60,626 bases of DNA, taken from Thiovulum sp. ES (lineage in GTDB: Bacteria > Campylobacterota > Campylobacteria > Campylobacterales > Thiovulaceae). The position numbers and the translations under genes were made by a program. Shown here piece after piece: positions 2,787 to 59,836 of the stretch. Below the pieces are notes generated by a model, which was not told the DNA's origin, made no database searches, and saw only the letters and a program-made list of their open reading frames with translations. The stretch is taken from NCBI GenBank assembly GCA_000276965.1, contig AKKQ01000005.1, positions 1 through 60,626 on the forward strand, read 5' to 3'. Numbering within the stretch: the stretch's first letter is position 1; each line of letters starts with the position of its first letter.

Positions 2787-5700
2787 TTATAATTTTTACC
2801 TCATCAACAAGTTTATAGGAGTGAATTAGGCTTCTCTGAATTTTACTATCTTTTGAGAAGAAGTTATAGAGAGCATTGATATACTCTGTTTTTGTCTCAA
2901 GATTTTCAAAGTTTTTAAGAGGTTGTAGTTTATCAGAAAGTCTATCCAAAATATAGCAGTTAGCATCTTTCATCTCTTTTTCAAAATAGAGACCAAAAAC
3001 AACAATATCGATTACAGCTTCGATGAGGTTTGCCTCTTTTTTTAGATTGTTGGATTTTGAGAAGAGAATATAATCTACAAGATTTGTGAGAACTTTTTCA
3101 GATTCTGGAGTTGGTTTTGGTAGTGGAAAAGGATTCATATATTTAGGATTAAATCTAAAGTATCCATTTGCTAAAACTGTTCCTGTGTTCTGTAAAAAGA
3201 ACCAAGTTAATTTTGAGTTTAAAATTCCAAGAAAAAATTTTAGTGATTTCTTAAAATCTTCTTTTATTGTTAAACCGTAAAGAGCACTTTTTAGACAAAA
3301 CTCATTTCCAAAAGTAAGATTTATCCCAAGTGTAATATCTGGTGTAACAAGTTTTGTAGAAGATTGACAGAATTCTAAATTTTTTGGATAAATGTATTTA
3401 AACCAGAAGCTGTCATTTTCAAGTCTTCCCCTTTCCCGTCCTCTAAACTCTTTTTCAAAAAACTTCAAATATTTATAAGATTCTGGAAATTTTTCAGAAA
3501 TCTCATTTTCGGAATATAGTTCAGCTTTTCCATCAACAAATTTATATGGAAAAATTACAAAGAACTTGTTCTTAAGCTTCTCATATCGATGAACATCATT
3601 CCCTTTCAGAATTGGTTTCAGAAACTCTTTCTCAAAAACAAAAGGTTTCTCAATCTCTCTTTTTCTCATCTCTTTTGAAAAACACTCTAAACAGTTCTCG
3701 TTTTCTGAAATTTCAGAACACTCTAAAAGATAAATATCATCTCCACTTGTTTGCAAACCCGTAAAAATTCTCTCAAAAATATCACTAACTCTTAAGGGCT
3801 GTTCTTCCAACTTTTTAAGAATATCCATAACTTTTTTCTCTTTGAAAATCCAAGGTTCAGAACCGAGTGTTTCAGTTTTGATATTTATAAAATCATCATC
3901 TTTTAGATTTTGAAGAAATTGAGAGACCTCATCGTGTTTTTCCTCTTTTGGAATATCTTTCCTCTCCTCTTTAGTTTTTGGCTTTTCAACAAAATCGATA
4001 TATTTTAGATTATCTTGTTTCTCTTTATGCATCATTAAGAGTGATGTGTAGGTCATAGCATTATCAAAGATGAGGTACTCCCCAAATGAGATAAATTGAG
4101 AAATATTCTGATTTACCAAACCTCTTAAACCTTTTCCAAAAGTTGAGTTAATCCACTTATGAGGCATTATAAAGTTTAGATTTCCACCATCTTTTAAAAG
4201 AGGTAGAAACTTCTCTACAAAAAGAACATAAATATCATAGCTTCCAACTGCTGAACTAAATATCTCTTTGTAATATTCTGATTTCTCTCTATCTAACCCT
4301 TGCACTCTAATATATGGTGGATTTGCTACGATGAGGTCAAACCCGAGAAAATCTCCGTTCTCATCTAAAACTTCTGGAAACTCAAATCTCCACTCAAAAG
4401 ATTCAGGCATCTTTTCTAAAAACTCAATTTTTTTGTGAAGTTCTAAAATCGGTTTCAGATCTTTTTTATAACCTTTAGTTTTTTCTCCAGTTACCATTAG
4501 TTTTTCAGTATATTTTTCCCAAAAACCTACTTCAATTTCACCAAAAGTATCAAGATACTTATCTAAAAGATTTCTTATCTTTTTAATATCAGAGTTTTCC
4601 CGACTTAGTTTTCCAATAAAACTCTCTTTTATTTTAAAAATATCTTTCTCAATCTGCTTTTTTTGGTTTTTCTCTTTAGTTGAAATATACTCTTTTACTA
4701 AATTTAGCAGTTCTCCCGTTTTCTTCTTCTCCAACTTTTGCTTAACTTCAAATCGTGACAAAAGAGAGTTTCCAACTTTGATATTTATATCGATATTTGG
4801 CAGAGTTGTGAATTTTCCATTTTCATCATAATAGCTCCATTTTAGAAGTTCAATCCACAATCTCAACCGTGCAATTTCAACAGATTTAGAGTTTATATCA
4901 ACTCCAAAAAGATTGTTTTCGATAATTTTCTCTTTTAGATGAAACATCTTTCTCTGAATTCGTATTGCTTCTTTTGGAAAATTTCCATTTTCATTTTTAA
5001 TATACTGCTCTTCATCAGCGATAAAAATCTCATCATTCTCAATATCCACAGATATTTTTTTGCTGTTTCCAAACTCATCTTCCAAATATGCTTGTCGAAC
5101 AACCAACTCATTTAAAAGAGAAACTAAAATATGCCCAGAACCAACAGCAGGATCAAGAACTTTGATATTTTGGAGGCTATTTTTTGGAAATCTATCGAGA
5201 CTATCTTTTGCCAGTTTTGTAGTTATAAAACTTGGAGTAAAGTGAGAACCGTCTTTATAGCCATTCACTTTTTCAAAAATAAGCCCCAAAACAGAAGATT
5301 TAATTAGAGTCTTATCAACTTTTGTAACTTCCTGATATTTGTTGCTTCCAAAATCGTAAGAATCTAAGAACTTGAAAAGATAATCTAAAGTTTTTAGTTT
5401 TCCACTTCCTAAAATTGACTTTTCAAAAAGTCCAATTTCAAGAGTGTTATTCAAATTCCTAATTTCACATAATCCCGTTCTTTTCTCTTCAAAATATTTT
5501 CTCTCAAAAAGTGAAGAGTTCATATATGGAATTTGTTTGAACTTTTCTAAATGGGGTTTTCGTTCCGATATTTCAACTGCCATAATTTCAAAAAAGAGAG
5601 TCTCCAACTGCTGAAAATCTGAAAGAGTTTCAATATTCATAAAAAATTTAAAATTTGGGTGCATGAAAACTAATCTTGCTTCCAAAAGTTTTAGAAATAG

Positions 5701-6585
5701 AATTCTGTTCAACCAGATAATATTTATCTCAAAAGCTTTCTCAAAATCTAAATCGCTATTCTCCAAAAAAGTAAGCTCTAAAAATGAGCCAGAATCTCTC
5801 TCTTTTTTCCGAACAATTTTCTGAATTCCATCTATTTTTCTCTCTTCAACTCCAAAAATATGTAAAAGCTCTTGATAGAAACTCTCATCAAGTGAGTTCA
5901 TATCTTTTTCGGCATCGATTTCAAGTAGATTTTTTGGTGAAAGAAGTTTGTAAATTGCTGTGAGTTCTCTTTTTAGCTCAAAAATCTTTAAATTTTCTAA
6001 ATCTTTTTCAAGCTCCTCAATTTTAGAAATTTCAAACTTTTCAAAATCTATTTTTGTATATTTCACATCTGAAAAATCAAAGTTTCTTAGAATATCTAAA
6101 TATATATCTCCTGTTTTTGCACTTTTTCGATACCTTGGAAACTCTTTTGATGAGACAATTTTCTCAATTTCAGAAGCTTTAAAAATATAGAGAGTTTTGT
6201 AATCTGTAATTATGAGATGTTTAATTGAAGAGCTTCTATATTCAGAATAGTAATAACAAATTTGGGCAAATGATTTTTTTGCAAAATTTTCATCACTTAT
6301 CATCTCCGAACTATCTGGCTTTTTTGTTTCAATAATAACTTCAATCTGCTTATCTTGAAAAATTGCTAAATCGATATTCTCAAAATTATTTATTTCAGAA
6401 TTTCCAAAATCAAAGGAGTTAAGAATATTTTGTAAATAAGTTTCACCTTTTCTTTCTCTTGAAATATCTTGAATTTTTCCTAAATATATTTTCAACTCTT
6501 TCAGAAATCGCAAAAAGTTCTCTTCTGAAATTGTTGAATTCGAGTATGAGTGTGTTAGAAAGTTTCTGTTTTTGATTTGGTTCAT
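2776..6585 (-). CDS. type IIG restriction-modification enzyme (fused PD-(D/E)xK endonuclease and gamma-class N6-adenine methyltransferase)
   Basis: 1269 aa. N-terminal nuclease-like motif DLAIF...EVIIETKK. Methyltransferase motif I VLDPAVGSGHIL and motif IV ANPPYIRVQ. A large C-terminal region is consistent with a target-recognition domain. Confidence 0.85.
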   Translation of the reverse strand: MNQIKNRNFLTHSYSNSTISEENFLRFLKELKIYLGKIQDISRERKGETYLQNILNSFDFGNSEINNFENIDLAIFQDKQIEVIIETKKPDSSEMISDENFAKKSFAQICYYYSEYRSSSIKHLIITDYKTLYIFKASEIEKIVSSKEFPRYRKSAKTGDIYLDILRNFDFSDVKYTKIDFEKFEISKIEELEKDLENLKIFELKRELTAIYKLLSPKNLLEIDAEKDMNSLDESFYQELLHIFGVEERKIDGIQKIVRKKERDSGSFLELTFLENSDLDFEKAFEINIIWLNRILFLKLLEARLVFMHPNFKFFMNIETLSDFQQLETLFFEIMAVEISERKPHLEKFKQIPYMNSSLFERKYFEEKRTGLCEIRNLNNTLEIGLFEKSILGSGKLKTLDYLFKFLDSYDFGSNKYQEVTKVDKTLIKSSVLGLIFEKVNGYKDGSHFTPSFITTKLAKDSLDRFPKNSLQNIKVLDPAVGSGHILVSLLNELVVRQAYLEDEFGNSKKISVDIENDEIFIADEEQYIKNENGNFPKEAIRIQRKMFHLKEKIIENNLFGVDINSKSVEIARLRLWIELLKWSYYDENGKFTTLPNIDINIKVGNSLLSRFEVKQKLEKKKTGELLNLVKEYISTKEKNQKKQIEKDIFKIKESFIGKLSRENSDIKKIRNLLDKYLDTFGEIEVGFWEKYTEKLMVTGEKTKGYKKDLKPILELHKKIEFLEKMPESFEWRFEFPEVLDENGDFLGFDLIVANPPYIRVQGLDREKSEYYKEIFSSAVGSYDIYVLFVEKFLPLLKDGGNLNFIMPHKWINSTFGKGLRGLVNQNISQFISFGEYLIFDNAMTYTSLLMMHKEKQDNLKYIDFVEKPKTKEERKDIPKEEKHDEVSQFLQNLKDDDFINIKTETLGSEPWIFKEKKVMDILKKLEEQPLRVSDIFERIFTGLQTSGDDIYLLECSEISENENCLECFSKEMRKREIEKPFVFEKEFLKPILKGNDVHRYEKLKNKFFVIFPYKFVDGKAELYSENEISEKFPESYKYLKFFEKEFRGRERGRLENDSFWFKYIYPKNLEFCQSSTKLVTPDITLGINLTFGNEFCLKSALYGLTIKEDFKKSLKFFLGILNSKLTWFFLQNTGTVLANGYFRFNPKYMNPFPLPKPTPESEKVLTNLVDYILFSKSNNLKKEANLIEAVIDIVVFGLYFEKEMKDANCYILDRLSDKLQPLKNFENLETKTEYINALYNFFSKDSKIQRSLIHSYKLVDEVKIINGK

Positions 6586-6639
6586 GGAGTCTTTTCTAAA
6601 AATTATACCTATTTTCAGAACTTTAAATTTTCAAGTTTA

Positions 6640-7993: not shown

Positions 7994-8896
7994 CTATTTA
8001 AAAATTTGAAGACCCTCATTATCAAAATCTAAAACTCTAATTGTGTAATTTGGAAAAAGCGACTCAAATCTGTTTTTTAAAGGCATAATATCCTCTTTAT
8101 ACATCAAATTGAAAAATGTCGAACCACTACCTGAAAGAGTACTCATTAAAGCTCCGTGTTCAAGTGCGATTTTTTGAACTGTAAAAAGCTCTGGAAGATT
8201 TTTCATTCTCTGTTTTTGATGAAACTTATCTTTTGATGCTAGTTTTAATAAATCCCAATCTTCATTAAAAAATGCTCCTGTTAAAAAAGAGGAGTGAGAT
8301 AAGTTAAAAATTGCCTTCTCCTTGCTATAAACTTTAGGAAGAGTCGTTCGCGATTGAGAAGTCGAAATTGTTTGATTTGGAATAACAACGAGTGCTTTTA
8401 AATATGGTGGCAACTTCTTTTTTTGTGTAAAAACTTTTTGTTGGTCAAGAATTGAAACAGTAAAACCGCCCATTGTCGCAGGTGCAATATTGTCTGGATG
8501 AGGTTCGTAAAGTAAAGCACTATTTAATAATTTATTTTTAATAACAGTTATTCCAGCAGCTTCACAAGCAGAGGCAAGAGCAGAAACAATAACAGCAGAA
8601 GAGCTACCAAGACCCCGCGACATTGGAATATTATTGTGAAAAGTGAATTTGAATTTTGTTTTACTATTTTTTCCTACAATATTTCTGTAATGTTCATTAA
8701 AAATATTTATAAAAAGGTTATTCCCTTTCATTTTTGGATTATCAGCACCCTCACCTTTTATTGAGACACTGAAGAATTTTGACGGTTTTATATCAACACA
8801 ATTTTTCATTTTTAGTGCTAATCCAAGGGTGTCAAAACCTGGCCCTAAATTTGCACTTGTTGCAGGAACACATATTTTCAACAATTCTGTTTCCAC
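7994..8896 (-). CDS. thrB: homoserine kinase
   Basis: GHMP kinase motifs [13 protein letters not shown] and [11 protein letters not shown]. Length is typical at 300 aa. Confidence 0.9.
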
Positions 8897-11594: not shown

Positions 11595-13045
11595 AGTCTG
11601 TTTTTTAAATTAAAAATGTCAGTATCAAGTGGGCGGTCTGCAAAAAGTGGTTTTGAGATTTCTCGGATTTTTGAATGGAGTTTTAAGAGAGATTTTGAAA
11701 ACCCACTTTTTCCACGAATATCAACAGCTTGAGCTAGAGAAAGCAGGGCGATTGAGATCAAATCTTCATAAAGTTCAAGTGAAGTTTTAAAATTCATTGC
11801 GGAAGTTGTTCCCATGCTTACTTTATCTTGATTTAAAGATTCTGTTGGTCGAGAAAGAGTTGAAGCGGGAGCAGAATTTCTGATAATTTCGCCACTAATT
11901 GCACTTGCTGTAATTTGCATCGCCTTGAATCCGTGGTGATGAGGTTCTTTCAACAGTTTTAAATTTTCACCCAAACCGTTATTAAATTTGTAGTCAATTA
12001 AAACAGCAAGTTCTTTATCGATGAGGTCGGCAAGATTTGCAATTGAAATTTTTAAATTATCCATGCCAATTGCGATATATCCGCCATAGAAATTACAACC
12101 ACTGTGAATTTCCTTTTTTTCTCCATCAATAATTGGATTATCATTTACGGAATTTACTTCGATTTCAATCCAATTTTTTACCATTTTGAGAGTGTCCCAA
12201 ACAGTTCCTAAAATTTGCGGAGAACATCGAAGCGAATAGCGATCTTGAATATTTTTTTCGCCATCTTTCCAACTTTCTGCTCGACAAGTTTCTAATTTTT
12301 CAGAATCCGAAAAGTAGCTTTCCATTCGTTTCGCACTCTCAATTTGTCCAAAAAACGGTTTAACTTCATGCACTTTTTCTGCAAAAGGCTCTTTTGTAGC
12401 TCCGAGAACTTCAAAAAGTCCAGATATAAATCTTTCAGTAATATTAAGAAGTTCCTCAAATTTATTAGCACTATTAAATGCAATTGCACTCATAACAGAA
12501 GTTCCATTCATAAGAGCTAAACCCTCTTTCGGTTTCAATTTATACTCTTCTAATCCGAATTTTTGCCAAAACCAAAGTCCCTGATCACTATCACCTGCAA
12601 CAAAAGAAGCCAAATAAGAGAGCGGAGTCAAATCTCCACTAGCACCAACTGAACCAATCGATGGAATTTTTGGAAATCCTCCATTTTGCAACATAAATTC
12701 GAGTCGCTCTAAAAGTTCAAAAGAGACTCCAGAAAAACCTTTTGAGAGTGAAATTAGTCGAAAAAGAACAATTAGTCGACTCTCTTCTTTTGAAAGAAGT
12801 TCACCAACTCCAACACGGTGAAATCTTGTAATATTTAATTGCAAATCCTCGAGTTGTTGAATTCCATTTTTTCCAGATTCACCAAAACCAGTATTTACAC
12901 CATAAATTGGGCGGTTTTGCATTTCCGTGTAAAGAAATTTTTGGGAACTCTCAATTCTTTTGATAAATTTATCTTCTTTGCAAAGAACAAAACTCTCTTT
13001 TTTTAAATCATCAAAAGATATTTTTTTGTCAGAAATCTCAATCAT
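11579..13045 (-). CDS. histidine/aromatic amino acid ammonia-lyase family protein (MIO enzyme)
   Basis: MIO-forming motif GSVGASGDLTPLSYLA. Family blocks NTGFG near the N-terminus and QDRYSLRC. 488 aa. Confidence 0.8.
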   Translation of the reverse strand: MIEISDKKISFDDLKKESFVLCKEDKFIKRIESSQKFLYTEMQNRPIYGVNTGFGESGKNGIQQLEDLQLNITRFHRVGVGELLSKEESRLIVLFRLISLSKGFSGVSFELLERLEFMLQNGGFPKIPSIGSVGASGDLTPLSYLASFVAGDSDQGLWFWQKFGLEEYKLKPKEGLALMNGTSVMSAIAFNSANKFEELLNITERFISGLFEVLGATKEPFAEKVHEVKPFFGQIESAKRMESYFSDSEKLETCRAESWKDGEKNIQDRYSLRCSPQILGTVWDTLKMVKNWIEIEVNSVNDNPIIDGEKKEIHSGCNFYGGYIAIGMDNLKISIANLADLIDKELAVLIDYKFNNGLGENLKLLKEPHHHGFKAMQITASAISGEIIRNSAPASTLSRPTESLNQDKVSMGTTSAMNFKTSLELYEDLISIALLSLAQAVDIRGKSGFSKSLLKLHSKIREISKPLFADRPLDTDIFNLKNRLHLLQ

Positions 13046-13971: not shown

Positions 13972-15366
13972 TCACAAATTTAGTTTTATAGCTACATTAA
14001 GAAAATAGAATATTCCCAAAAGAGGAAAAAGTAGAAAGAGTAGTTTTGATTTTAGAATCTTTCTGAAACGATTCCAGCCAAACTCATGAACAGTAAAAAT
14101 AAAAAGAGCAAAACTGCTAATAGTTGTTGAAAAAGCGAGACCAGAAGCTCCAAAATCCTCTAAAAGAGCTAGAGCGACAACAATTTTTATAAAAAGTGAG
14201 TAGGTAGCAATTTTTGCACTCTTTCCAATTTTCTCTTTTGCATACAACCAGAGTGAAAAAAGTTTTGCGACTCCGAAAATTGCTAGACCAAAAAGATAAA
14301 AAGTGAGAACTTTAGCCGTTTCAATTCGATCAATTTCTGAAAATTCACCCCGTTCAAAAAGCAGAGAAACAATCTCTTCACTCCAAACAATTCCAACAAG
14401 TGTTGCACTTGAAAGCAAATAAGCTAGTAGCCAAAAAGCTTTTTTCAGAATCTCCTCCGCTTTACTTTCGCCAGAGACATCTTTTAAATATTTTGCGACT
14501 TTTGGAAAAATTGCCATTGTGATTGCAATTCCAAAAATTGCCAACGGAAATTGAAAAACACGATTTGCAAAATAGAGATATGAGATAGAACCAGTTATTA
14601 AAAAAGAGGCGAGAAGTGTGTCAAGAAAAGATGAGATTTGAGCAGTTGCACCGCCCCAAATTGCTAATGAAAATTTTGTAAAAAAGTTTTGTGAATCGTC
14701 GGCGACCTCATCGAATCTCTTCCATTTACTAAATCCACCAAAAGCTACACGATTTAATTTGAGAAAGAGTATTGCAAAAACATGTGAAATCACTTGTAAA
14801 ATTCCGCCGAGAACAACTGCAAATGAGAGTAGATAAACTATTTTTTCATCACTCATTCCGTTTCCAATCATCAGTGCTAAAATCATTGAAATATTTAAAA
14901 GTGCGGTCGAAAATGATGTTGTTGCAAAATGCTCTCTGTAATGTAAAATCGCTGATAAAAATGTTACCGTGAAAATAGCGATGAGGTACAGAAAGTTTAT
15001 CTTTACAAAGATTGTTGCTTTCTCTATATTTTCATCTGAAAAACCTGTCGCTATCATTTTTGTAACTTCGCTGTCAAAAATAAAAACGAGAACTGTCAAA
15101 AAACCTACTGCGGAAATCAACTTTAAAAATATGGATGCTGAAAAGAGTATTTTTTTTCGACTCCGCACAAACGATGGAATAAATGCTTGAGAAAATGCTC
15201 CCTCTCCAAAAATCCGCCTAAATAGATTTGGCAATTGAAAAGCGACAAAAAATATATCCGTATAAATACTAACTCCGAGTGTCGAAGCCATAAACATATC
15301 TCGAATTAGTCCAAAAATTCTGCTTACCAAAATTCCTGAACTGTTGCTAAAAATTGATTTAAACAA
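13972..15366 (-). CDS. murJ: lipid II flippase MurJ (MviN)
   Basis: N-terminus SGILVSRIFGLIRDMFMASTLG...FFVAFQLPNLFRRIFGEGAFSQAFIP. Polytopic, 464 aa. Confidence 0.9.
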   Translation of the reverse strand: MFKSIFSNSSGILVSRIFGLIRDMFMASTLGVSIYTDIFFVAFQLPNLFRRIFGEGAFSQAFIPSFVRSRKKILFSASIFLKLISAVGFLTVLVFIFDSEVTKMIATGFSDENIEKATIFVKINFLYLIAIFTVTFLSAILHYREHFATTSFSTALLNISMILALMIGNGMSDEKIVYLLSFAVVLGGILQVISHVFAILFLKLNRVAFGGFSKWKRFDEVADDSQNFFTKFSLAIWGGATAQISSFLDTLLASFLITGSISYLYFANRVFQFPLAIFGIAITMAIFPKVAKYLKDVSGESKAEEILKKAFWLLAYLLSSATLVGIVWSEEIVSLLFERGEFSEIDRIETAKVLTFYLFGLAIFGVAKLFSLWLYAKEKIGKSAKIATYSLFIKIVVALALLEDFGASGLAFSTTISSFALFIFTVHEFGWNRFRKILKSKLLFLLFPLLGIFYFLNVAIKLNL

Positions 15367-15460: not shown

Positions 15461-17368
15461 TTAACTAATTGGAGTTCCAATTTTTCGCGGTTTTTCTGGA
15501 CGAATTAGTGAAAGTCCATTTTCATCTTTTCCAGCAAGAACCATTCCTTCAGACATGTGTCCCATCAATTTAGCAGGTTTGAGATTTGCAACTACACAAA
15601 CTTGAGTGTTTAAAAGTTCCTCTTTTTTGTAGTATTTACGAATTCCTGCAAGAATTTGTCGTGGTCGCTCTTCACCTAAATCAACTCTCATTTTATAAAG
15701 CTTGTCGCTTTTTGGCAACTCTTCAACTTCAATGATTTCACCGATCTTGATTTTTGTCTCAAAGAATTTATCAATTGTGATAACACCCTCAATTTTCAAC
15801 TCTTTCGGTTTCTCCTCTTTTTTCTCTTCCTGTTTCATTTTAGGTTTATCAACTCTTGGGAAAAGTGCAGAAACTTTTTGGATTTTAAATTCTGTTCGCA
15901 CATCTTTTTCAGTGATGATTTTTTTATAACTTTCAGCAGAAATTTCAACATTTAGAGCTTTTGCCATCTCTTCACCACTTTTTGGCATGATTGGATAAAT
16001 CAGGAGAGAAACACGAGAAAGAAGATTTGAGATGAAAACAAGTAGCGACTCGACCTCATCGGGATTTGTTTTGATTTTTGCCCAAGGTTCACTTTTTTGA
16101 ATAGCACCATTTCCAATTGCAAGAATTTCCCAAATATCTTCTAAATATCGGTGAATTTGCATTTTAAAAATATGCTTTTCAAGTCCGCTGATGATTTCAT
16201 CAACTTTCGCTAATTGGCTTTCAAACTCCCCTAAACTTGCGGAAAATTTGAGTAAAAAATATTTGTCTCCCATTCCAATTAAACGGTTTAAAAGATTTCC
16301 AAGTGAATTTCCTAAATCTCCATTGATACGATTAATAAGAGCTTTTTCAGAAAAATCCCCATCTTGACCAAACGGAACTTCACGAAGTAAAAAATATCTG
16401 AAAGTATCAATTCCGTAAGCATCAACAACTTCTCGAGGTTTTACGATATTTCCGACAGATTTGCTCATTTTTTGTCCATCTCGAGTCCACCAACCGTGTG
16501 CCGAAATATGATGAGGTAGAGGTAAATCCAAACTCATTAAAAATGCGGGCCAATAAATTGCATGGAATCTTAAAATATCTTTTCCAACAATATGAGTTTT
16601 TGCCGACCAAAAATCCATATTTTTTTCATCGTCGCCATAACCAAGTGCTGTAATATAATTTAGAAGTGCATCCAGCCAAACATACATAACATGATGAGGT
16701 TCGTTCATCGATTCTGGCAATTTAACACCCCAATCAAAACTTGTTCGCGAAATTGATAAATCCTTTAAACCACCCTGAACAAAAGAGATAATTTCATTTC
16801 TTTTTGAAGTTGGCAAAATAAATTCTGGATTTTTTTCGTAAAGTTCCAAAAGCTTATCTTCATAATTTGAGAGTCTGAAAAAGTAGCTCTCTTCTTCAAT
16901 TACTTTTGTCTCTTTTCCGCAATCTGGACAAGAATTTTCCCCAATCAGTTGTGTGTTTGTAAAAAAGCTCTCACATGAAATACAGTAATTTCCGCTATAT
17001 GAACCTTTGTAAATATCACCTTTTTGAAACATTTTCTCAAAAGCGATTTGAACACCTTTTTTGTGATAGTCGTCTGTGGTTCTTATAAAATGGTCATATT
17101 TGATTCCAAAATCATCCCAAAGTTGCTTAAATTTTCCAGAAATTTCGTCTGCATACTCTTTAGGGGTTCGACCTCGTTTTTTTGCACTCTCTTCAATTTT
17201 CTGACCGTGTTCGTCTGTTCCAGTTAGCAAAAAAGTTTCGTATCCGAGAAGTTTTGAATACCGAGAAACGGCATCCGCAATTATTGTTGTGTAGGCATGT
17301 CCGATATGTGCTTCATCATTCACATAGTAAATCGGAGTAGTTATATAAATTTTATTACAAGATGACAA
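15461..17368 (-). CDS. metG: methionine--tRNA ligase with C-terminal tRNA-binding (Trbp111-like) domain
   Basis: HIGH motif (AHIGHAY), KMSKS, a zinc knuckle CISCE...CPDCG, and a C-terminal OB-fold block KIGEIIEVEELPKSDKLYKMRVDLG. Confidence 0.95.
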   Translation of the reverse strand: MSSCNKIYITTPIYYVNDEAHIGHAYTTIIADAVSRYSKLLGYETFLLTGTDEHGQKIEESAKKRGRTPKEYADEISGKFKQLWDDFGIKYDHFIRTTDDYHKKGVQIAFEKMFQKGDIYKGSYSGNYCISCESFFTNTQLIGENSCPDCGKETKVIEEESYFFRLSNYEDKLLELYEKNPEFILPTSKRNEIISFVQGGLKDLSISRTSFDWGVKLPESMNEPHHVMYVWLDALLNYITALGYGDDEKNMDFWSAKTHIVGKDILRFHAIYWPAFLMSLDLPLPHHISAHGWWTRDGQKMSKSVGNIVKPREVVDAYGIDTFRYFLLREVPFGQDGDFSEKALINRINGDLGNSLGNLLNRLIGMGDKYFLLKFSASLGEFESQLAKVDEIISGLEKHIFKMQIHRYLEDIWEILAIGNGAIQKSEPWAKIKTNPDEVESLLVFISNLLSRVSLLIYPIMPKSGEEMAKALNVEISAESYKKIITEKDVRTEFKIQKVSALFPRVDKPKMKQEEKKEEKPKELKIEGVITIDKFFETKIKIGEIIEVEELPKSDKLYKMRVDLGEERPRQILAGIRKYYKKEELLNTQVCVVANLKPAKLMGHMSEGMVLAGKDENGLSLIRPEKPRKIGTPIS

Positions 17369-24672: not shown

Positions 24673-24733
24673 TTTTTCCCTTTGCTTTGTTGTTTAAATT
24701 ATATTTTTTGGACAGGACAAAACCTGTCATTTA

Positions 24734-26716: not shown

Positions 26717-26776
26717 TCATCTTCCCTTTAAATTTTCAGAATTGTAAAGTCCTTGACGGACTATGATTGTCTAAAA

Positions 26777-45122: not shown

Positions 45123-46673
45123 TTAAAATATTTGATTTATCCATTGCCAAATTTTAGACATTTGATTATTTTGAGTATTAGGTTTTCCAAAACTACCTGT
45201 ATTTGTTTTCATGTTATTTATTTTTGATAAGTCCCCATAATTACCGGGTAAATCATTTTCAACTGGATGTCTCATTACCTGTTGATTTCCGCCCAAATCT
45301 GTTTTAGGAATTCTTGGGCTTGGTCGCCCTCCTTGAGGTATAGTATTTCTTGCTTCTTTAGAAAAATCTTGTTTTTTCCGTGGTGTTGGATTCTCAATAA
45401 CTTGTTCTTTTGGGACTCCATAAGAGCCTGGACCAATATCTTCGAGATCAACACGAGAAGATCCTCTCTGTTCATCAACACTATCATTATTATACAGCAT
45501 ATTCCAATTTGAATCGAACTCGTAAAGAGTATGTTCTCCTGTTGAATGAAGAATGAGACCAATTGCTGTTGAAAAAGATGGATCTCTCAAATCATTAAAG
45601 AGTCCGTCAATGTTGTCTCTTGGTTGTGCAAGTCGAATCGGTGCTTTAAAAATTTCACCTGCTAGTTCTCGAACACCTTCAAGTTTTGTAAGACCGCCAG
45701 TAAGAACGAAACCAGCACCAATTTCTCTTCTTAAACCAGTATTATAGATCTGCTCTTCCAAAATAGAGAGAGTTTCTTGAACACGGGCATAAACAACTTT
45801 TCCAACAAGATTTAGAGCGACTTCGTGGCTAGAAGTTTCATCACCAATTGCTGGAATTTCGATGAGGTCATCTTCATAAGGAAACATGAGACTGCCGTAA
45901 GTTATCTTCACACTTTCTGCAATATGAACAGGAGTGTGAAGTGCCATAGATAAGTCATTTGTAACATTATCTGAACCAACTCCAAGAAATCCTGTGCTAC
46001 GAATTGCATTTCCTGCAGCATGAATTACAAAACTACTTGTATCTCCGCCCAAGTCAATAACTCCACAACCGAGACTTCTCTCATCGGAATTTATTGTTGC
46101 AATATATGAGGCATAGCTATCAAGAATAACTTTAGATACTTCTAAACCTGCCAACTCAACAGCTCTTTTAAGATTACTTACATTTGATTTTGGAGCAGTA
46201 ATAATATGAACAAAAACCTCTAGCCGAGAAGCATTCATTCCAAGAGGGTCTTCAACATAGTCTTGCTCATCAACTTTAAAATTGTAAGGTAGAATGTGAA
46301 GCACTTCATAATCTGGTGGAATTGTCAAATTATATTGAGAAGTTTTCATAACTTTTTCAATATCTTGAATTGTGATTTCACCGCTCTGAATATTAAAAAT
46401 TGCATGACTATCAATACCAATAACAGCACCACCAGAGATAGAGACAACAGCATCTCGGGCCGAAATTCCTGCTACTCGTTTAGCATACTCAAAAGCCTGT
46501 TTAATTGATTTAGAAGCTTGTTCAATATTTGTAATAGAACCTTTTTTTAAACCACTTGATTTTTCAACACCTGCACCAATTAGTCTAGGTTTTCCATCTC
46601 GAACTTCAGCAATAATTGCACAGACTTTTTTTGAGCCTATATCAATGGCTAGAAGTTTTTTGCCACTATCCAA
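45123..46673 (-). CDS. ftsA: cell division protein FtsA (long C-terminal extension)
   Basis: Actin-fold blocks LAIDIGSKKVCA, VIDLGGDTSSF and VLTGGLTKLEG. 516 aa. Confidence 0.9.
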   Translation of the reverse strand: MDSGKKLLAIDIGSKKVCAIIAEVRDGKPRLIGAGVEKSSGLKKGSITNIEQASKSIKQAFEYAKRVAGISARDAVVSISGGAVIGIDSHAIFNIQSGEITIQDIEKVMKTSQYNLTIPPDYEVLHILPYNFKVDEQDYVEDPLGMNASRLEVFVHIITAPKSNVSNLKRAVELAGLEVSKVILDSYASYIATINSDERSLGCGVIDLGGDTSSFVIHAAGNAIRSTGFLGVGSDNVTNDLSMALHTPVHIAESVKITYGSLMFPYEDDLIEIPAIGDETSSHEVALNLVGKVVYARVQETLSILEEQIYNTGLRREIGAGFVLTGGLTKLEGVRELAGEIFKAPIRLAQPRDNIDGLFNDLRDPSFSTAIGLILHSTGEHTLYEFDSNWNMLYNNDSVDEQRGSSRVDLEDIGPGSYGVPKEQVIENPTPRKKQDFSKEARNTIPQGGRPSPRIPKTDLGGNQQVMRHPVENDLPGNYGDLSKINNMKTNTGSFGKPNTQNNQMSKIWQWINQIF

Positions 46674-46676: not shown

Positions 46677-48116
46677 CTATCCTTTAAAGTAAGTCTCTAC
46701 TGGGTAGTAATACTCTAACCTCTTAATAAGATTTTCATTTAAAAGTTGTTCTTTAAGTTGTAATACAACATCAGAATCTAAAGTATCACCAGCATCACCG
46801 ATTCTCTGTTCAAGGATTTGGTAAAGAACAACTTTGCTACCAATTTTCAAAAAACCTGAATTTGAAGACTGCATAAAAATATCATTTATAAGTTGGCTTT
46901 GCTCTTCAAGATTTAGACCACTAAAAATATCTTGTCCAATGCTAGAAAGAGAGATAAAGTCGGTCTCTTCTCCATCAAAATCAGTGTATGAAGTCTTAGC
47001 AATTTCCATAAGTTGGGAGTCTCTTTTTTGAAATTCTAATTCTGTTTGAACTGCCATCGCAACATTTTCAAAACTTTCAACTTCAGAAGGAATTACCTTT
47101 TCCAATTTAACAGAAACAAATTTGCCGTTTGAGAAAATTGGTTTCATAACTTCACCCTCGTTTAAAGCAGTTAAGTTTGGCATCTGTTCAAAAGGAATAA
47201 TCATATTTAAACCACTGATTTCAGAACTCTCAATTTTTCCATCAAACTCGCCTTTTTTAAAAGCTAAATACTCTTTAAGTGCTGTTTTTTTACTCTCATT
47301 TTGGAGAATATCCGCATGAATTTGGTCTTTGACCTCATCGAAAATTTCATCATAATCAAGTGCATGAAGATTAAAATACTCGTTTAATTCGCTTTCATTT
47401 ACATCTCTTTCAGCAATAGGAGTTTCGATGTAAGAAATTGAGTATCTCTCCTCAGTCATATAGTTATTTTTTGTCAATTCCCAATGAGCTTTAATCTCCT
47501 CTTCAGTAACAGAAACTTCAATATTAGAAGTGTTTAAAACTTTATATTCCAACTTATCTTCTAATTTTGTCAGTGAATTTATAACTTCCTCTTCAAAAGG
47601 TGTAATTTCAATATTTAAAAGCTCCTGTAATTTTGAAATTAAAATAACTTTTCTTAAACGATCCTCATACTCTTTTGGTGTCATCCCTCCATTTTTAAGA
47701 ATAAATTCATACTGTTCTCTTGAAAAATTCCCATCTTTTTGAAAATCTTGGCTGTTAAAAATATGTTCTGCTACTTCTTTATCAAGAACTGTTAATCCAA
47801 AATCTATCGCTAAATTTTGCAATAATGCATCTCTTTTTAAAATATTAAATGCTGTCTCTTGTAATCTCATATTTTTAGCAGTCTCTTCATCAAATTTACC
47901 ACCAAACATTCTTGAATAATAACTATAAATATTACTGTAAGTAGATTGCAACTCAGAAAGCTTAATCTCTACATTTCCAATTTTTGCGATAGCAGAAGCT
48001 TTGCTACCATAATTATAAGAACCCCAACCAACGAAACCAGCACCAATAAATGCAATGGCACTAATCCAAAGTGTAACAACAAGGTATTTTTTATTATGTT
48101 GCATCCATGTAATCAT
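46677..48116 (-). CDS. PpiD/SurA-N-like periplasmic chaperone
   Basis: N-terminal anchor MITWMQHNKKYLVVTLWISAIAFIGAGF typical of PpiD, followed by a long chaperone-like body. 479 aa. Confidence 0.65.
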   Translation of the reverse strand: MITWMQHNKKYLVVTLWISAIAFIGAGFVGWGSYNYGSKASAIAKIGNVEIKLSELQSTYSNIYSYYSRMFGGKFDEETAKNMRLQETAFNILKRDALLQNLAIDFGLTVLDKEVAEHIFNSQDFQKDGNFSREQYEFILKNGGMTPKEYEDRLRKVILISKLQELLNIEITPFEEEVINSLTKLEDKLEYKVLNTSNIEVSVTEEEIKAHWELTKNNYMTEERYSISYIETPIAERDVNESELNEYFNLHALDYDEIFDEVKDQIHADILQNESKKTALKEYLAFKKGEFDGKIESSEISGLNMIIPFEQMPNLTALNEGEVMKPIFSNGKFVSVKLEKVIPSEVESFENVAMAVQTELEFQKRDSQLMEIAKTSYTDFDGEETDFISLSSIGQDIFSGLNLEEQSQLINDIFMQSSNSGFLKIGSKVVLYQILEQRIGDAGDTLDSDVVLQLKEQLLNENLIKRLEYYYPVETYFKG

Positions 48117-48731: not shown

Positions 48732-49745
48732 TTATAAAACCTTTGCTCCATCATTTTTCATAACAACCATATTTTCAATTCGTGTTCCCATAAAATTAGG
48801 AATGTAAATTGCAGGTTCAATTGTAAAAACCATATTCTCCTCAATAACAACATCACTTCTTTCTGAAATATTTGGAAACTCATGAATATCAAGACCAACA
48901 CCGTGACCAGTAGAATGCATGAAATTTTTTCCATAACCAGCTTCTGTAATTATGTCTCGAGCAATTTTGTCAATTTCTGAAGCTTTCATTCCAATTTTTG
49001 CTTTTGCAACTGTTTCGTCATGAGCTTTTTGAACAATGTCATAAATTTTTTGAACTTTTGGTGTCATTTTTGCATAAGAGAATTTTGTCTGTTGGAACAT
49101 AAAAGTTTCAGTTCTGTCAGAACAATATCTTTTGTATTTTACTCCTGCATCAACAAGAATTAAATCTCCGTTTGAGAGTCTTTTGTCCGATGAGGTCGCA
49201 TGTGGTTTTGAAGTATTTTCGTTAAAAGCAACAATTGGGTGAAAAGAGAGTTCTAAACTACCTTTTTGCTGGATAATATTTCGCAACTTATAATTTAATT
49301 CACTCTCTTTTTTCCCAATACCTTTAACTGAAAGATAATCTTTAAATCTCTGGAAAGATGCTTTTCCGTACCTTGCAGCTGTTGAAATAAATTCAACTTC
49401 CTTATCTGTTTTAACCATTCGTTTCTCTTTTGAGAAATTTGGTTTTGAGACAAAAGATATTTCAATCTTATTTTTTAAACTGTCAAAATCAGCAACAGTC
49501 CATTCATTTGGATCGAAAATAACTTCTTTAACTTTTTCACTTTTTAGAATTTCCACAAGAGTATCAACAAGACTTCTTTCAGCTTCAACAACATCGCAGT
49601 TGATAGCTTCATTTTTTGCCTCTTCGATATATCTAGCATCTGTAAAAAGAACTTTTGTGGAATCTAAAGAGAGAAGAAGAGAATTATCATTGCTGTAAGA
49701 AACTTCATAATAGATAGAATTTTCATCTTTATATAGATAATTCAT
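48732..49745 (-). CDS. M24-family Xaa-Pro aminopeptidase/dipeptidase
   Basis: Metal ligand blocks LVDAGVKYKRYCSDRT, HSTGHGVGLDIHEFP and FTIEPAIY. Confidence 0.85.
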   Translation of the reverse strand: MNYLYKDENSIYYEVSYSNDNSLLLSLDSTKVLFTDARYIEEAKNEAINCDVVEAERSLVDTLVEILKSEKVKEVIFDPNEWTVADFDSLKNKIEISFVSKPNFSKEKRMVKTDKEVEFISTAARYGKASFQRFKDYLSVKGIGKKESELNYKLRNIIQQKGSLELSFHPIVAFNENTSKPHATSSDKRLSNGDLILVDAGVKYKRYCSDRTETFMFQQTKFSYAKMTPKVQKIYDIVQKAHDETVAKAKIGMKASEIDKIARDIITEAGYGKNFMHSTGHGVGLDIHEFPNISERSDVVIEENMVFTIEPAIYIPNFMGTRIENMVVMKNDGAKVL

Positions 49746-50309: not shown

Positions 50310-50903
50310 CTAAGTTTTGATTGCAAATGGCAAAAGAACCATTAAGAAAATTCGATGAGGTCGGGAGTGAAGATTTAAAAGCTTAATACCTATTGAAAAT
50401 CGGTCTAAATCTTCAGGGGAAAAGTGGAAATCCCTATTTTTTAAAAGTGTATTTTCCAAAAGAAGAGTTGCTTCTTCAACAGAAATATCTTTTACAGAAT
50501 TCAAGAAATTGTCTAAAATTTTCAAATCTAAACTTGATATTTTTGGAGTCTGATAATTTAGAGGCTCTTTTTTGCTTTCAATAGTTTTAACGGGCAGACG
50601 AGAACGAACAGTTGGCAAAAGCATAGATTTTGATGGAACAATTAAAATGAAGAAAGTATTTCGCGGAGGCTCTTCTAAAACTTTTAAAAGTCCGTTTTGA
50701 GAAACTTGAGAAAGCTTTTTTGTTTCAATAGCAATTACTTTACCATTTTCACTACTCTCGTATGATTCCTTGATAATATTTCTGACCTCATCGATAGAGA
50801 GAGCTTTTGAGTGAAACCAAACAATCTCTAAATTTTGACTCATTTCAGTAACAAATTTTTTAGTATCTTCAGAATATTGAGTTACTAAGATTTGGCTTTT
50901 CAT
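50310..50903 (-). CDS. holB: DNA polymerase III delta-prime-like subunit (short form)
   Basis: Clamp-loader sensor block LLKVLEEPPRNTFFILIV...LLPTVRSR. Only 197 aa. Confidence 0.7.
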   Translation of the reverse strand: MKSQILVTQYSEDTKKFVTEMSQNLEIVWFHSKALSIDEVRNIIKESYESSENGKVIAIETKKLSQVSQNGLLKVLEEPPRNTFFILIVPSKSMLLPTVRSRLPVKTIESKKEPLNYQTPKISSLDLKILDNFLNSVKDISVEEATLLLENTLLKNRDFHFSPEDLDRFSIGIKLLNLHSRPHRIFLMVLLPFAIKT

Positions 50904-51661
50904 ATTTTTATTTTTTCTTGACCTATTCTATAAAGGGCAAAATCATATTTAACAGGATCGTTTTTGTCAAATTCTTGCAATTTCTCTGTTAAAAGAACAG
51001 CTGATTTTAAATCATAAGTTTTTCTTTCTAAAAGTCCTAAATTTTGAGAAATTTTAAAAGTGTGAGTATCAAGAGGAATTATCAAATCTTTTTTTGATAC
51101 ATTTTTCCACAAGCCTAAATCAAGATTATCTTTGCGAACAACCCAACGGAGAAATAGATTCCATCTTTTCATTGCTGAAAAACCTGCCAACTTTCTTTTA
51201 TTTGGAATTTTTCCCAACAAAAATTGATAACCTTTTGAATCATGTTTTTCAACTTTCCGCATTTCAGAAATCAAGTTTTTTAAACCATCAATCACATTTT
51301 CCTCTTTCTTGTAACCCGCAACAAAAATCTCTTCTAAATTTCCAACTCTCTTTAAAGCTTTAAAAATTGCGATGAGGTCCTCGCCTTTTTGAAAACGATA
51401 ATAGAATTTTTGCAACTCCTTTCCCATAACCTCATCAGAACTCTCTAAAATTTCAAAAGGCAAACTCTCCAAAAATTTTAAGATTAAAGATGCTTTCCCA
51501 TATGCAAAAAGTGCCGAGATTAAGGCTACCTTATCATTTTTCCATTTTGTCGCAACAATTAAAGGATCAGGCTTTTCATGAGAAAGTTCTCCAATCTGAT
51601 TTCTAAATTGACTCTCTTTTTCAAGAAGCTCTCTCAAATTATTTTTCAAAACACTCCTCAA
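50900..51661 (-). CDS. TIGR02757/DUF2400-family protein
   Basis: 253 aa with IPLDTHTFKISQNLGLLERK and a C-terminal DPVKYDFALYRIGQ pattern. Overlaps the holB-like start by 4 nt. Confidence 0.55.
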   Translation of the reverse strand: MRSVLKNNLRELLEKESQFRNQIGELSHEKPDPLIVATKWKNDKVALISALFAYGKASLILKFLESLPFEILESSDEVMGKELQKFYYRFQKGEDLIAIFKALKRVGNLEEIFVAGYKKEENVIDGLKNLISEMRKVEKHDSKGYQFLLGKIPNKRKLAGFSAMKRWNLFLRWVVRKDNLDLGLWKNVSKKDLIIPLDTHTFKISQNLGLLERKTYDLKSAVLLTEKLQEFDKNDPVKYDFALYRIGQEKIKI

Positions 51662-54852: not shown

Positions 54853-54937
54853 GCTAAAATTTCAAAGCCCTTTCATTTAATTTATTTTGCAAAACTAATT
54901 ATAACTGAAAGGCACTTTTCCAAAAAAATTTAAAATA

Positions 54938-55600: not shown

Positions 55601-55734
55601 AATATCCCCAATATGTTTATTGCATTTTATCTGCTAAAAACATATTGTATTAAAATTATATGAATTTTGCAACTATATTTACAAATAGATAAAATTTATT
55701 TTATTTACTTAGTGTAAAAAATATAAAATTTATT

Positions 55735-56830: not shown

Positions 56831-58000
56831 TTAATCTTTTACGACCTCATCGATACCAAAACCAATATTTACAAAAATCACTTCAATTTCTGTTCCACCA
56901 ATTTTTGGTTCAAAAACTAAATTTTCCCGACTTTCAAAACTCGGAGCAATAAAATAGCCCTTTCTCTTTTTGAGAGTCGAAACATAAGTTATCAACTGAT
57001 AAATATCTTCTCGGTTTGGTCTCTCTTTGTAAATTTTGTATTTCGTATCAATAACAAAATCATCTAAAATAATGTCGGGAATTATCTTGATTTTGTCGTA
57101 AATTGAGTGTGATTTTTGTGAGACAAACGGAATTTTAGATTTTTTTAAAAGAGTTTCAACAAATTTTTCAAAAAGATAATTCATGTCAAAAAGAATACTC
57201 CAGAAAGGAGTTGAGTCAATTTTTGCCGTGTATGGCATGTAGTTGTAAAAAATGGTTCGTGCCTGATTGAAAAGAGTCTCAAATCTGCTATTCAATCTTG
57301 AAAATTGGACTCGCTCAAAATCACTTTCACGAAGTTGGATATTTTCGACATTTTCCAAAAGATTACGGACTTCAAAAAAATTCTGCTTCGTTCGGTAGGA
57401 AAAAGTTTGGTCTTCCAAAAGAAGAATTGAAATAGACTTAAAAACTTTCATGAGATTCGTGTTTTTCGTTCGTTTTCGATATTCGACAACAACTCTACTT
57501 CTATCAAACGGATGTCGATTTAGAGTTTTTTGAATATCAATTTTTCCACGAATTGTGTTATTGCTTTCAATAACTTTTGTGTAGCCTTTGTCACTTCCTT
57601 TTCTGATTTCTGCCAAAAGGTTTTCCGAAAAAAGTTCCACAACATACGAAATCAGAGGCAACTCTTTAATCGAAACTTTCGATGAGGTCGAGCTACTCAC
57701 AAATGAATTTCTCTTGTCGGTAAAACGGATCAATTTTACAAACTCTTTTCGATAGCTCTCTATGTTTTTCTCTTTTGCAATTTTTGGCAAAATCTCAATA
57801 ATCACACCATCTTTCAAAGCAATTGAGCCAACAATAGAATCTGTTTTTACAGTTTGTGAATTGTGAAATTTAAAAACTGACTTTTTATCAAGTTTGATTG
57901 AAAGCAAATCAGCTAAATCATTTTTTGAGAAAACAGCATTTTCCAAATCTCGTTTTTCAGCAATTTTCACTTTTGAGTGTTCAAAAATTGTAACAATCAT
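56831..58000 (-). CDS. mcrC: McrC-like endonuclease subunit
   Basis: 389 aa located downstream of the McrB-like GTPase. C-terminal PD-(D/E)xK-like motif IPDIILDDFVIDTKYK. Confidence 0.75.
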   Translation of the reverse strand: MIVTIFEHSKVKIAEKRDLENAVFSKNDLADLLSIKLDKKSVFKFHNSQTVKTDSIVGSIALKDGVIIEILPKIAKEKNIESYRKEFVKLIRFTDKRNSFVSSSTSSKVSIKELPLISYVVELFSENLLAEIRKGSDKGYTKVIESNNTIRGKIDIQKTLNRHPFDRSRVVVEYRKRTKNTNLMKVFKSISILLLEDQTFSYRTKQNFFEVRNLLENVENIQLRESDFERVQFSRLNSRFETLFNQARTIFYNYMPYTAKIDSTPFWSILFDMNYLFEKFVETLLKKSKIPFVSQKSHSIYDKIKIIPDIILDDFVIDTKYKIYKERPNREDIYQLITYVSTLKKRKGYFIAPSFESRENLVFEPKIGGTEIEVIFVNIGFGIDEVVKD

Positions 58001-58009
58001 TCTAAAACT

Positions 58010-58981: not shown

Positions 58982-58999
58982 ACCAAACTCCTCTGAAAA

Positions 59000-59836
59000 T
59001 TAAAAGCTTTTTAAAAGTTCAATTTCATCTTTCCAAATCGTATCGTCAATTGTTTCCAAAACAAGCGGAATTTCATCAATCCGAGAATCATTCATTATAA
59101 ATTTAAAAGTGTCTAAGCCAATTTCACCTTTTCCAAGAGAATGATGTCTATCAACTCGACTACCAAACTTTGCTTTTGAGTCGTTGATGTGCATTCCTTT
59201 TAAATATTTAAATCCGACCTCATCGCCAAAAAGCTTCATTGTTTTTTCGTAATTTTCACGATCCCGAATATCATAGCCTGAAGAGAAAAGATGACAAGTA
59301 TCAATACAAACACCAACTCGACTTTTATCTTCAACTCCATCAATAATTGCGGAAAGATGTTCCAATTTATATCCTAAATTTGTTCCTTGCCCTGCAGTGT
59401 TTTCAATTACAAGTGTTACATCTTCTGTTTTATCAAGAGTCCGATTCATCGCCTCAACTACTTTTGCGATTCCTTCGTCTTCACTAATCTGTTTTAAATG
59501 ACTTCCTGGATGAAAATTCAAACGATCCAAACCTAAAATTCCGCATCGCTCAACTTCATCAATAAATGCATTTAGTGATTTTTCCCATTTTTCCTGTTCT
59601 GGACTTGCCAAATTTATTAAATAGCTGTCGTGTGGTAAAACCTGTTTTGCTGAAAATCCAAATTTTTCCATGTTTTCCCGAAATTTATCAATTGTCGCTG
59701 TATCTAAATCTTTAGCTTTCCATTGCCTTTGATTTTTCGTGAATAGTGCGAAACCACTTGCACCTATCTTGTTTGCATTTATCGGAGCATTCCAAACCCC
59801 GCCACTGCTACTAACATGTGCACCAATATATTTCAT
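59000..59836 (-). CDS. nfo: endonuclease IV
   Basis: [13 protein letters not shown]..., [33 protein letters not shown] and HINDS metal-ligand blocks. I re-set the start to the Met preceding KYIGAH. Confidence 0.9.

Follow-up and report, generated by a model that had tools for sequence, protein, structure and literature searches.

An over-represented, asymmetric octamer of the Thiovulum clade with the signature of a DNA uptake sequence

Why should one eight-base word recur in gene after gene, and in both orientations, along a single stretch of bacterial DNA? The stretch considered here (the window) comprises 60,626 nt (60.6 kb; G/C content 32%) of contig AKKQ01000005.1, deposited as Thiovulum sp. 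ES, and the word is the octamer GATGAGGT (reverse complement ACCTCATC), which in many copies forms part of the decamer CGATGAGGTC (reverse complement GACCTCATCG). We found 39 octamers in the window (23 on the forward and 16 on the reverse strand; 0.64 per kb, or about one per 1.5 kb); exact decamers account for 23 of them (10 forward, 13 reverse), 15 copies extend to CGATGAGGTCG, and two have an identical 17-mer in common (at ~26384 and ~33420). An earlier note, made from the sequence alone, had placed all 23 decamers at the right coordinates and had described both the extension of many copies to a longer word and the 17-mer pair, which is real; its count of reverse octamers (16) was also right, its forward count (22) and total (38) were each one too low, and the first copy, at 2798-2805, falls just before the start that it had given. 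Dinucleotide shuffles predict 0.01 decamers and 1.1 octamers, and Markov models of order 0-3 predict 0.02-0.05 decamers (0.05 at order 3) and 1.0-2.1 octamers, in agreement with the note's estimate of far fewer than one decamer. An order-5 model already absorbs most of the word and expects 0.9 decamers and 13.9 octamers; the observed numbers still exceed these values, i.e. the word is exceptional up to order 5. The word and its sub-words rank first among the over-represented words at k = 6, 7, 8 and 10, the octamer being ~20-40 times more frequent than expected. The uptake signal sequences (USS) of Haemophilus and the DNA uptake sequences (DUS) of Neisseria occur at ~0.8-0.9 per kb, and GATGAGGT, abundant in both orientations and against codon preference throughout the Thiovulum clade and not outside it, is distributed as a DNA uptake sequence would be. 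The uptake-sequence-like signature that the note had proposed is supported by this abundance, by selection at the level of DNA, by the lack of polarity and by restriction to one clade. Our leading hypothesis is that GATGAGGT serves the Thiovulum clade as a DNA uptake sequence not described before; on the sequence features we give it about an even chance.

All 39 copies in the window lie within genes. The 17 sense copies are without exception read as GAT GAG GTn (D-E-V), because the second sense frame would create a TGA stop; the third (x-M-R-x) does not occur in the window and is rare in its relatives. DUS are under the same stop-codon constraint, with TGA blocking one frame (Frye et al., PMC3630211). 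The 22 antisense copies use three frames, x-L-I (11 copies), x-P-H (7) and T-S-S (4), so that the note's description of copies in all reading frames of both orientations holds for the antisense copies and fails for the sense ones. Over 10 loci of the clade we counted 176 copies (88 sense, 82 antisense and 6 intergenic), with four of the six frames in use. The choice of codons is telling: GAT GAG GTC spells 13 of 22 D-E-V tripeptides (0.6 predicted from codon usage), ACC TCA TCG spells four of nine T-S-S (0.06 expected; codons that are used for 3-5% of their amino acids) and CTC ATC encodes 11 of 110 L-I pairs (2.2 expected). The codons that spell the word are rare ones (ACC 3%, TCG 5%, GTC 10%, CTC 10%). 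The tripeptides themselves are affected as well: for D-E-V the ratio of observed to expected frequency is 4.2-4.3 in the clade, window included, and 1.7 in outgroup Campylobacterota, and for L-P-H it is 3.5-4.4 in the clade and 0.95 in the outgroups. The codon tests are decisive: selection acts on the DNA word and not on the protein, and the protein sequences have themselves been shifted by it. The note had argued for selection on the DNA word from a few peptide contexts, all of them correctly read (P-D-E-V in metG, R-P-H-R in trmB and the holB-like gene, T-S-S in the M24 peptidase and McrC genes, N-L-I-E in the restriction-modification gene), and codon usage, tripeptide frequencies and frame usage now bear it out. 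Internal Shine-Dalgarno mimicry, suggested by the resemblance of GAGGT to such a site, is ruled out, more than half of the copies being antisense. An intragenic bias is reported for both DUS and USS (PMC2346458). Within the genes of the clade loci, the first fifth holds 17 copies compared to 30-46 in each of the other fifths; this deficit may in part be an artefact of mechanically extended open reading frame starts.

Alignment of all copies yields, for the window lineage, a footprint T-N2-C-GATGAGGT-C-G of ~20 bits, with T at -4 in 26, C at -1 in 30, C at +1 in 24 and G at +2 in 20 of the 39 copies. As these preferences recur separately in the sense and the antisense subsets, they are a property of the DNA motif itself and no effect of codon context. 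Outside positions -4 to +2 the 39 aligned copies hold no information and reveal no longer conserved repeat. A repeat family with longer conserved flanks, which the note had kept in mind, is thus not seen, and a dispersed REP- or MITE-like element is ruled out by the lack of flank information together with the position of the copies in frame within conserved genes. These data bear on the explanation that the word has no function as DNA and that its excess merely follows from protein motifs, codon usage or a dispersed repeat. All sense copies in the window do read D-E-V, a tripeptide mildly favoured in the outgroups too; against this, more than half of the window copies are antisense, in three frames and with unrelated peptides, the rarest codons spell the word, the outer flanks are uninformative, and copies stand in conserved housekeeping genes in independent assemblies from four sources. 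We regard a by-product as refuted. Variants with one mismatch are not enriched (37 in the window against 28 expected; 83 against 86 in eight relatives), in the same DNA that holds 39 and 123 perfect copies, respectively; recognition would therefore be essentially all-or-none over the eight bases. Similarly, permitting one mismatch adds only 21% to the copies of kingDUS (PMC3630211).

Polarity was tested per contig. Over eight contigs (the window and seven relatives) the majority strands together hold 85 of 148 copies, where 87 are expected for p = 0.5; none of 5000 simulations with a polarity of 75% gave so low a total. At the scale of contigs, a polar signal of the Chi or KOPS type is rejected by this nearly even split, and the note's opinion that the word is not Chi- or KOPS-like, based on the window (23:16), extends to the contigs of the relatives. 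Chi (RecBCD/AddAB) and KOPS/SRS (FtsK/SpoIIIE) are likewise short over-represented words recognised by a translocating enzyme, but they are strongly co-oriented with replication and only few-fold enriched, whereas the Thiovulum word is split ~50:50 in each of the contigs tested and enriched 20-40 times. The gaps between copies in the window have a coefficient of variation of 1.05, corresponding to random, Poisson-like placement, with no regular or HIP1-like periodic spacing. HIP1 (GCGATCGC) of cyanobacteria resembles the Thiovulum word in being a hyperabundant intragenic octamer of a large clade whose hosts are often polyploid, and its function, long unknown, is now proposed to be an aid to transformation (2026 preprint). 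However, HIP1 is palindromic, methylated by known methylases and quasi-periodic; an iterated palindrome of this kind is ruled out for the Thiovulum word, which is asymmetric and randomly spaced.

The window has the usual gene complement of Campylobacterales (a long TrmB of the PRK14121 type, petABC, nspC, flagellar genes, ftsAZ, murG and murJ). Its methionyl-tRNA synthetase (MetRS) is 63-64% identical to the nearest named homologues (Arcobacter, Halarcobacter, Sulfurimonadaceae), and metagenomic relatives stand at 96, 89, 80, 79, 76, 74, 69 and 67% identity. Contigs holding such MetRS homologues, found by protein search and exact-protein matching, were taken as the relatives of the window; among them are JAMJTW, which is Ca. 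Thiovulum imperiosus (Bizic et al. 2022, PMC9938260), and CP091137 (GCA_021582295.1), the closed 1.72 Mb genome of Ca. Thiovulum stygium (PMC9938260). On these sequence comparisons the window comes from a member of the Thiovulum clade, giant, fast-swimming, veil-forming and polyploid sulfur oxidisers. Nine relatives at 67-96% MetRS identity, including Ca. T. imperiosus and Ca. T. stygium, carry the octamer at 0.55-0.96 per kb, and it is the top or near-top octamer in every relative at or above 67% (G/C content 28-38%). A relative at 65% identity has one copy in 20.5 kb, and 64 loci at or below 64% identity (Arcobacteraceae, Sulfurimonadaceae, Sulfurospirillum, Sulfurovum, Campylobacter and Veillonella) are not enriched, with 0-5 copies each, as composition predicts. 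The word is thus a clade-wide signature, conserved in the relatives of the window and not enriched in the outgroups.

Across the lineages the eight core bases are invariant, and the flanking positions -1 and +1 differ from lineage to lineage. The window lineage and its 89-96% relatives have the dialect C-core-C-G, the ~80% relatives (the T. imperiosus group) have T-core, with no decamers at all, and the most distant lineage has TT-core; lineage-specific dialects of the flanks have been described for the DUS of Neisseriaceae (PMC3630211). Individual sites are maintained to different degrees. In metG, two of the three window sites hold the exact octamer in seven of nine lineages despite 70-85% nucleotide identity; counting the seven lineages in that identity range, they are identical in five, which places them at the 94th percentile of the octamers of this gene. 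Three other sites are patchy, and lineages without the word have other amino acids there. In 7.4 kb of DNA aligned between the window and its 93%-identical relative, all five sites are common to both. An artefact of sequencing or assembly is ruled out, since conserved housekeeping genes contain the copies in frame and the copies recur in independent assemblies from four sources (JGI, ENA, NCBI and Logan).

The word is unevenly spread over different kinds of genes. KilA-N genes (four in the window plus homologues in a relative) and transposase genes hold no copy in ~6.7 kb, where ~4.7 would be expected. In type IIG restriction-modification genes (11.7 kb from four loci) there are 14 copies, above the average density, and the McrBC genes and an Hsp70-like cluster have normal copy numbers. 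This pattern fits a word loaded onto DNA that has long been exchanged in the Thiovulum gene pool, and not onto selfish mobile genes. The frequency of type IIG methyltransferase-endonuclease genes in the loci, and the copies within them, could also point to a dense site that is bound by a protein organising the chromosome, or modified by an orphan DNA methyltransferase, and that selection for the structure of the nucleoid or for epigenetic marks would keep; a core that is invariant across a deep clade and kept at orthologous sites would suit such a role. However, parS, matS, NBS and SBS sites number tens per genome and not ~1,300, the spacing of the word is random instead of periodic, and the word has no symmetry and hardly ever occurs between genes, which is where one would look for regulatory binding. 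Genomes usually avoid, and do not accumulate, the targets of restriction-modification systems, whose specificities vary between strains, while the core never varies; a restriction target as such is ruled out by this avoidance and by the invariance of the core across species. We therefore consider a nucleoid or methylation site improbable.

Several of these genes deserve a description of their own. The four KilA-N domain genes lie at 273-989 and 54100-56655 of the window, three in tandem and one fused to TPR repeats, and homologues adjoin restriction-modification genes in the relatives L065 and L067. At 1455-6585 a RecF/AAA_21-like ATPase gene stands beside that of a 1269-aa type IIG (Eco57I/MmeI-like) enzyme with N-terminal DUF7149 and DUF7814; similar type IIG genes occur in relatives. 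A further pair of defence genes, McrBC, occupies 56831-58981. On the reverse strand, 17495-28126 holds seven co-oriented genes, in which four divergent Hsp70/DnaK-like paralogues (17495-19117, 20417-21913, 22654-24672 and 24734-26716, the last with a vWA/chelatase-like C-terminal region) are found among three proteins of unknown function; this run looks like an accessory or defence-type system rather than housekeeping dnaK. A 114-aa open reading frame at 13526-13870 (forward strand) matches only the C-terminal TNB domain of TnpB/Cas12f-like proteins and is probably a remnant of an IS200/605-type element. Other words are iterated in the phylum, too. CTCTTCAG, which we take to contain the complement of the Eco57I site CTGAAG, has 10 copies in each of the 22 kb loci L067 and L070 of the Ca. 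T. imperiosus group, ~24 times the expectation from composition. Sulfurospirillum loci have a hyperabundant palindromic word of their own, (T)TACATGTA(A), i.e. the TTACATGTAA word, with copies that are dispersed and mostly intragenic: 11 copies of TACATGTA in 21.9 kb of L037 (Sulfurospirillum sp. SCADC; 0.28 expected), 6-8 in L014, L008 (S. arcachonense) and L035, and 1-2 in the Sulfurospirillum-labelled L011 and L036. Campylobacterota may have in it a second iterated-word system, independent of the first.

How could a DNA uptake sequence have come to be distributed in this way? A surface component of a type IV pilus or Cts-type uptake machine would bind double-stranded DNA with the word, whichever its orientation; on the model of the minor pilin ComP of Neisseria, the receptor could be a minor pilin or a secretin-associated protein. 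Conspecific DNA would then be taken up preferentially, and uptake bias together with homologous recombination would constitute a molecular drive that fixes new copies and preserves old ones. Such a drive would act wherever the protein tolerates the word (D-E-V in sense; x-L-I, x-P-H and T-S-S in antisense), to saturation within coding limits, overriding codon preference and shifting tripeptide frequencies, and lineage-specific flanks could bias exchange towards close relatives. Uptake function, receptor and drive are what we infer from the signature. Such machinery is plausible in the clade: type IV pilus genes are reported from all six published Thiovulum genomes, a large share of the surface filaments of the cells has been suggested to be pili (Bizic et al., PMC9938260), and the supplementary annotation of the genomes lists the secretin ctsD/pilQ, comEA, comEC, comFC and dprA (PMC9938260). 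The loci of the relatives contain a prepilin peptidase and a weakly ComEA-like HHH protein. The competence genes that the note's proposal calls for are thus found in the published genomes and not in the window, whose 60.6 kb contain no type IV pilus, secretin, ComEA, ComEC or DprA gene. In our literature searches the word was met only in primers and never as a genomic motif, in line with the note's statement that it knew of no described uptake sequence with this word, and the searches brought up no uptake sequence for Thiovulum or Campylobacterota.

A number of points weigh against uptake. Apart from the absence of competence genes from the window, such genes are widespread in Campylobacterota that lack a word of this kind, which makes their presence in Thiovulum weak evidence; competence genes being common in the phylum, and machinery not showing uptake, we hold the hypothesis at no more than even chances. 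Thiovulum is uncultured, and uptake by its cells is hypothetical. The Poisson-like spacing lends uptake no positive support. Unlike in Neisseria DUS, very few copies of the clade are intergenic (none in the window), and no terminator-type inverted pair was found among the 176 copies, the closest convergent pair lying inside a gene. The clade is polyploid, which makes drives within the cell plausible alternatives. Finally, the word is present in a phage. When viral contigs were scanned with a 14-mer that includes the word, 120 loci were returned, two of them motif-dense. One, L198 (identical to L187; IMGVR_UViG_3300011258_000710), is a siphovirus-like contig of 19.4 kb and 45% G/C with the word as its top octamer: it has eight copies (0.4-0.8 expected), four on each strand, and with all genes on the forward strand four copies are sense and four antisense. 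Several have the dialect of the window, with CGATGAGGTCG flanks. The contig encodes a major head protein, a tape measure protein, an amidase, an exonuclease VIII-like protein, a helicase, a methylase and a VRR-NUC nuclease; similarity searches with its capsid and helicase gave only distant matches, which are uninformative on the host. A phage with the word is not obviously what the simplest model of an uptake drive predicts, yet it is compatible with one. Temperate phages of hosts with uptake sequences can carry these sequences. The second motif-dense locus, L147 (IMGVR_UViG_3300042868_008355; 12.4 kb of a 91 kb contig, 33% G/C), is labelled viral and has seven copies in the TGATGAGGTT dialect. 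Its visible genes (a ClpB-like ATPase, a dTDP-sugar epimerase and a HAD protein) are not clearly those of a phage, and the locus could derive from a Thiovulum chromosome or from a large element.

The phage contig and polyploidy lead to the explanation that the word is an intracellular signal for recombination, repair or self-recognition. A nuclease, helicase or repair complex of the host would bias gene conversion among chromosome copies, or the word, a kind of non-polar Chi site, would label DNA as self, and biased conversion would drive its copy number. The chromosomes of a Thiovulum cell number tens to hundreds. In polyploid bacteria gene conversion is believed to be important, and HIP1 is another hyperabundant octamer of polyploid hosts. 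The all-or-none specificity over eight bases resembles recognition by a nuclease, and a phage-like contig that has recombination genes of its own (exonuclease VIII-like, VRR-NUC and helicase) and the word as top octamer in both orientations fits a signal useful to any DNA in the cell. On the other hand, the characterised Chi and KOPS sequences are all polar and this word is not, the phage contig with its 45% G/C does not match the 29-38% of the clade, and the recent evidence on HIP1 points towards transformation. We know of no described non-polar conversion signal, which also counts against this explanation. We judge an intracellular signal, the strongest competitor of the uptake hypothesis, to be possible, if doubtful. 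The more specific proposal, in which a non-polar signal in giant polyploid cells directs or biases gene conversion or marks self, and phages copy it likewise, seems to us unlikely; if it were true, it would constitute a new class of genome-wide recombination signal, possibly akin to HIP1.

The two established systems of uptake sequences offer a comparison. Like the DUS of Neisseriaceae (AT-DUS ATGCCGTCTGAA, receptor ComP), the Thiovulum word is short and asymmetric, occurs about once per kb in both orientations in a host reported to have type IV pilus genes, and is family-wide, with an invariant core, dialects following phylogeny, far more perfect than one-mismatch copies and one frame blocked by TGA (PMC3630211). 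The sequences, however, are unrelated and the phyla different, the core is eight bases compared to the 3-base functional core of DUS, and 170 of the 176 Thiovulum copies are intragenic, with none in an inverted-repeat terminator. The USS of Pasteurellaceae (core AAGTGCGGT / ACAAGCGGT) agrees in density, in a mostly intragenic location in tolerated frames with effects on peptide composition, in having at least two clade-specific variants and in its lack of replication polarity. It differs in that the word is unrelated, and in that USS have graded positions, AT-rich flanking segments and many imperfect copies, whereas the Thiovulum word is all-or-none and its flank preferences are short. Within Campylobacterota, the only self-discrimination during uptake is, to our knowledge, based on methylation. 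Transformation of Campylobacter jejuni reportedly discriminates DNA by CtsM methylation at RAATTY (Beauchamp et al. 2017). This system has in common with Thiovulum the phylum, a Cts/type-IV-pilus-like apparatus and the favouring of self DNA in uptake, but it relies on methylation of a degenerate, AT-rich hexamer that is frequent and not enriched in the genome, while in Thiovulum a rare GC-rich octamer is itself enriched 20-35 times. The copies in the window are listed in Table 1.

Table 1. Copies of the word in the window, with the reading of each copy in the gene that contains it
Word	Position	Strand	Reading	Gene	Remark
8-mer	2798..2805	-	sense V-D-E-V	type IIG restriction-modification	
8-mer (CGATGAGGT)	3022..3029	+	antisense N-L-I	type IIG restriction-modification	
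exact 10-mer	3925..3934	-	sense D-E-V	type IIG restriction-modification	
8-mer	4069..4076	+	antisense Y-L-I	type IIG restriction-modification	
exact 10-mer	4329..4338	+	antisense D-L-I	type IIG restriction-modification	
8-mer	8497..8504	+	antisense E-P-H	GHMP kinase	
8-mer	11938..11945	+	antisense E-P-H	aromatic amino-acid ammonia-lyase	
exact 10-mer	12019..12028	+	antisense D-L-I	aromatic amino-acid ammonia-lyase	
exact 10-mer	14704..14713	-	sense D-E-V	murJ	
8-mer	14980..14987	+	antisense Y-L-I	murJ	
exact 10-mer	16052..16061	-	sense P-D-E-V	metG	kept in 7/9 clade lineages
8-mer	16510..16517	+	antisense L-P-H	metG	kept in 7/9 clade lineages
8-mer	16693..16700	+	antisense E-P-H	metG	patchy, 3/9 clade lineages
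exact 10-mer	18103..18112	+	antisense D-L-I	Hsp70-like	
exact 10-mer	19227..19236	-	sense D-E-V	unknown, 19107-20420	
8-mer	22239..22246	+	antisense Y-L-I	unknown, 21906-22769	
exact 10-mer	23215..23224	-	sense D-E-V	Hsp70-like, 22654-24672	
exact 10-mer	24382..24391	-	sense D-E-V	Hsp70-like, 22654-24672	
8-mer	24816..24823	+	antisense T-S-S	Hsp70-like, 24734-26716	
exact 10-mer	26387..26396	-	sense N-D-E-V-E	Hsp70-like	17-mer in common with 33423 copy
exact 10-mer	26890..26899	+	antisense D-L-I	unknown, 26777-28126	
exact 10-mer	33423..33432	-	sense N-D-E-V-E	FGE-sulfatase-domain	17-mer in common with 26387 copy
8-mer	33862..33869	+	antisense T-S-S	FGE-sulfatase-domain	
8-mer	34897..34904	+	sense D-E-V	ribosome hibernation factor	
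8-mer	36518..36525	+	sense D-E-V	nspC	
8-mer	36991..36998	-	antisense R-P-H	nspC	
8-mer	41137..41144	+	antisense N-L-I	trmB	
exact 10-mer	41465..41474	+	antisense R-P-H-R	trmB	
exact 10-mer	42034..42043	-	sense D-E-V	trmB	
exact 10-mer	45860..45869	+	antisense D-L-I	ftsA	
exact 10-mer	47331..47340	-	sense D-E-V	peptidylprolyl isomerase	
exact 10-mer	49188..49197	+	antisense T-S-S	M24 peptidase	ACC TCA TCG, rarest codons
exact 10-mer	50353..50362	+	antisense R-P-H-R	holB-like	
exact 10-mer	50784..50793	-	sense D-E-V	holB-like	
exact 10-mer	51370..51379	+	antisense D-L-I	DUF2400	
8-mer	51429..51436	-	sense D-E-V	DUF2400	
exact 10-mer	56843..56852	-	sense D-E-V	McrC	
exact 10-mer	57680..57689	+	antisense T-S-S	McrC	
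exact 10-mer	59216..59225	-	sense D-E-V	AP_endonuc_2 (TIM-barrel)	

Computationally, GATGAGGT thus carries all the marks of an uptake sequence. The phylum would be new for such sequences, the word is unrelated, unusually strict and almost entirely intragenic, and its host is an uncultured, polyploid giant bacterium. A 2025 preprint still limits uptake sequences to the DUS of Neisseriaceae and the USS of Pasteurellaceae, two proteobacterial families, and the 2026 preprint proposes HIP1 as an uptake-type case in cyanobacteria. If the Thiovulum word is indeed an uptake sequence, it would represent a third or fourth independent origin and make sequence-tagged DNA exchange a recurrent solution. Natural transformation would then be expected in this ecologically important giant sulfur bacterium, whose abundant type IV pili might have a second role, and placing the word on donor DNA might make Thiovulum genetically tractable. 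If the word is instead an intracellular signal, it would give a clue to the means by which polyploid bacteria maintain uniform copies of their chromosome. The word is, in addition, a simple marker for the binning of Thiovulum contigs.

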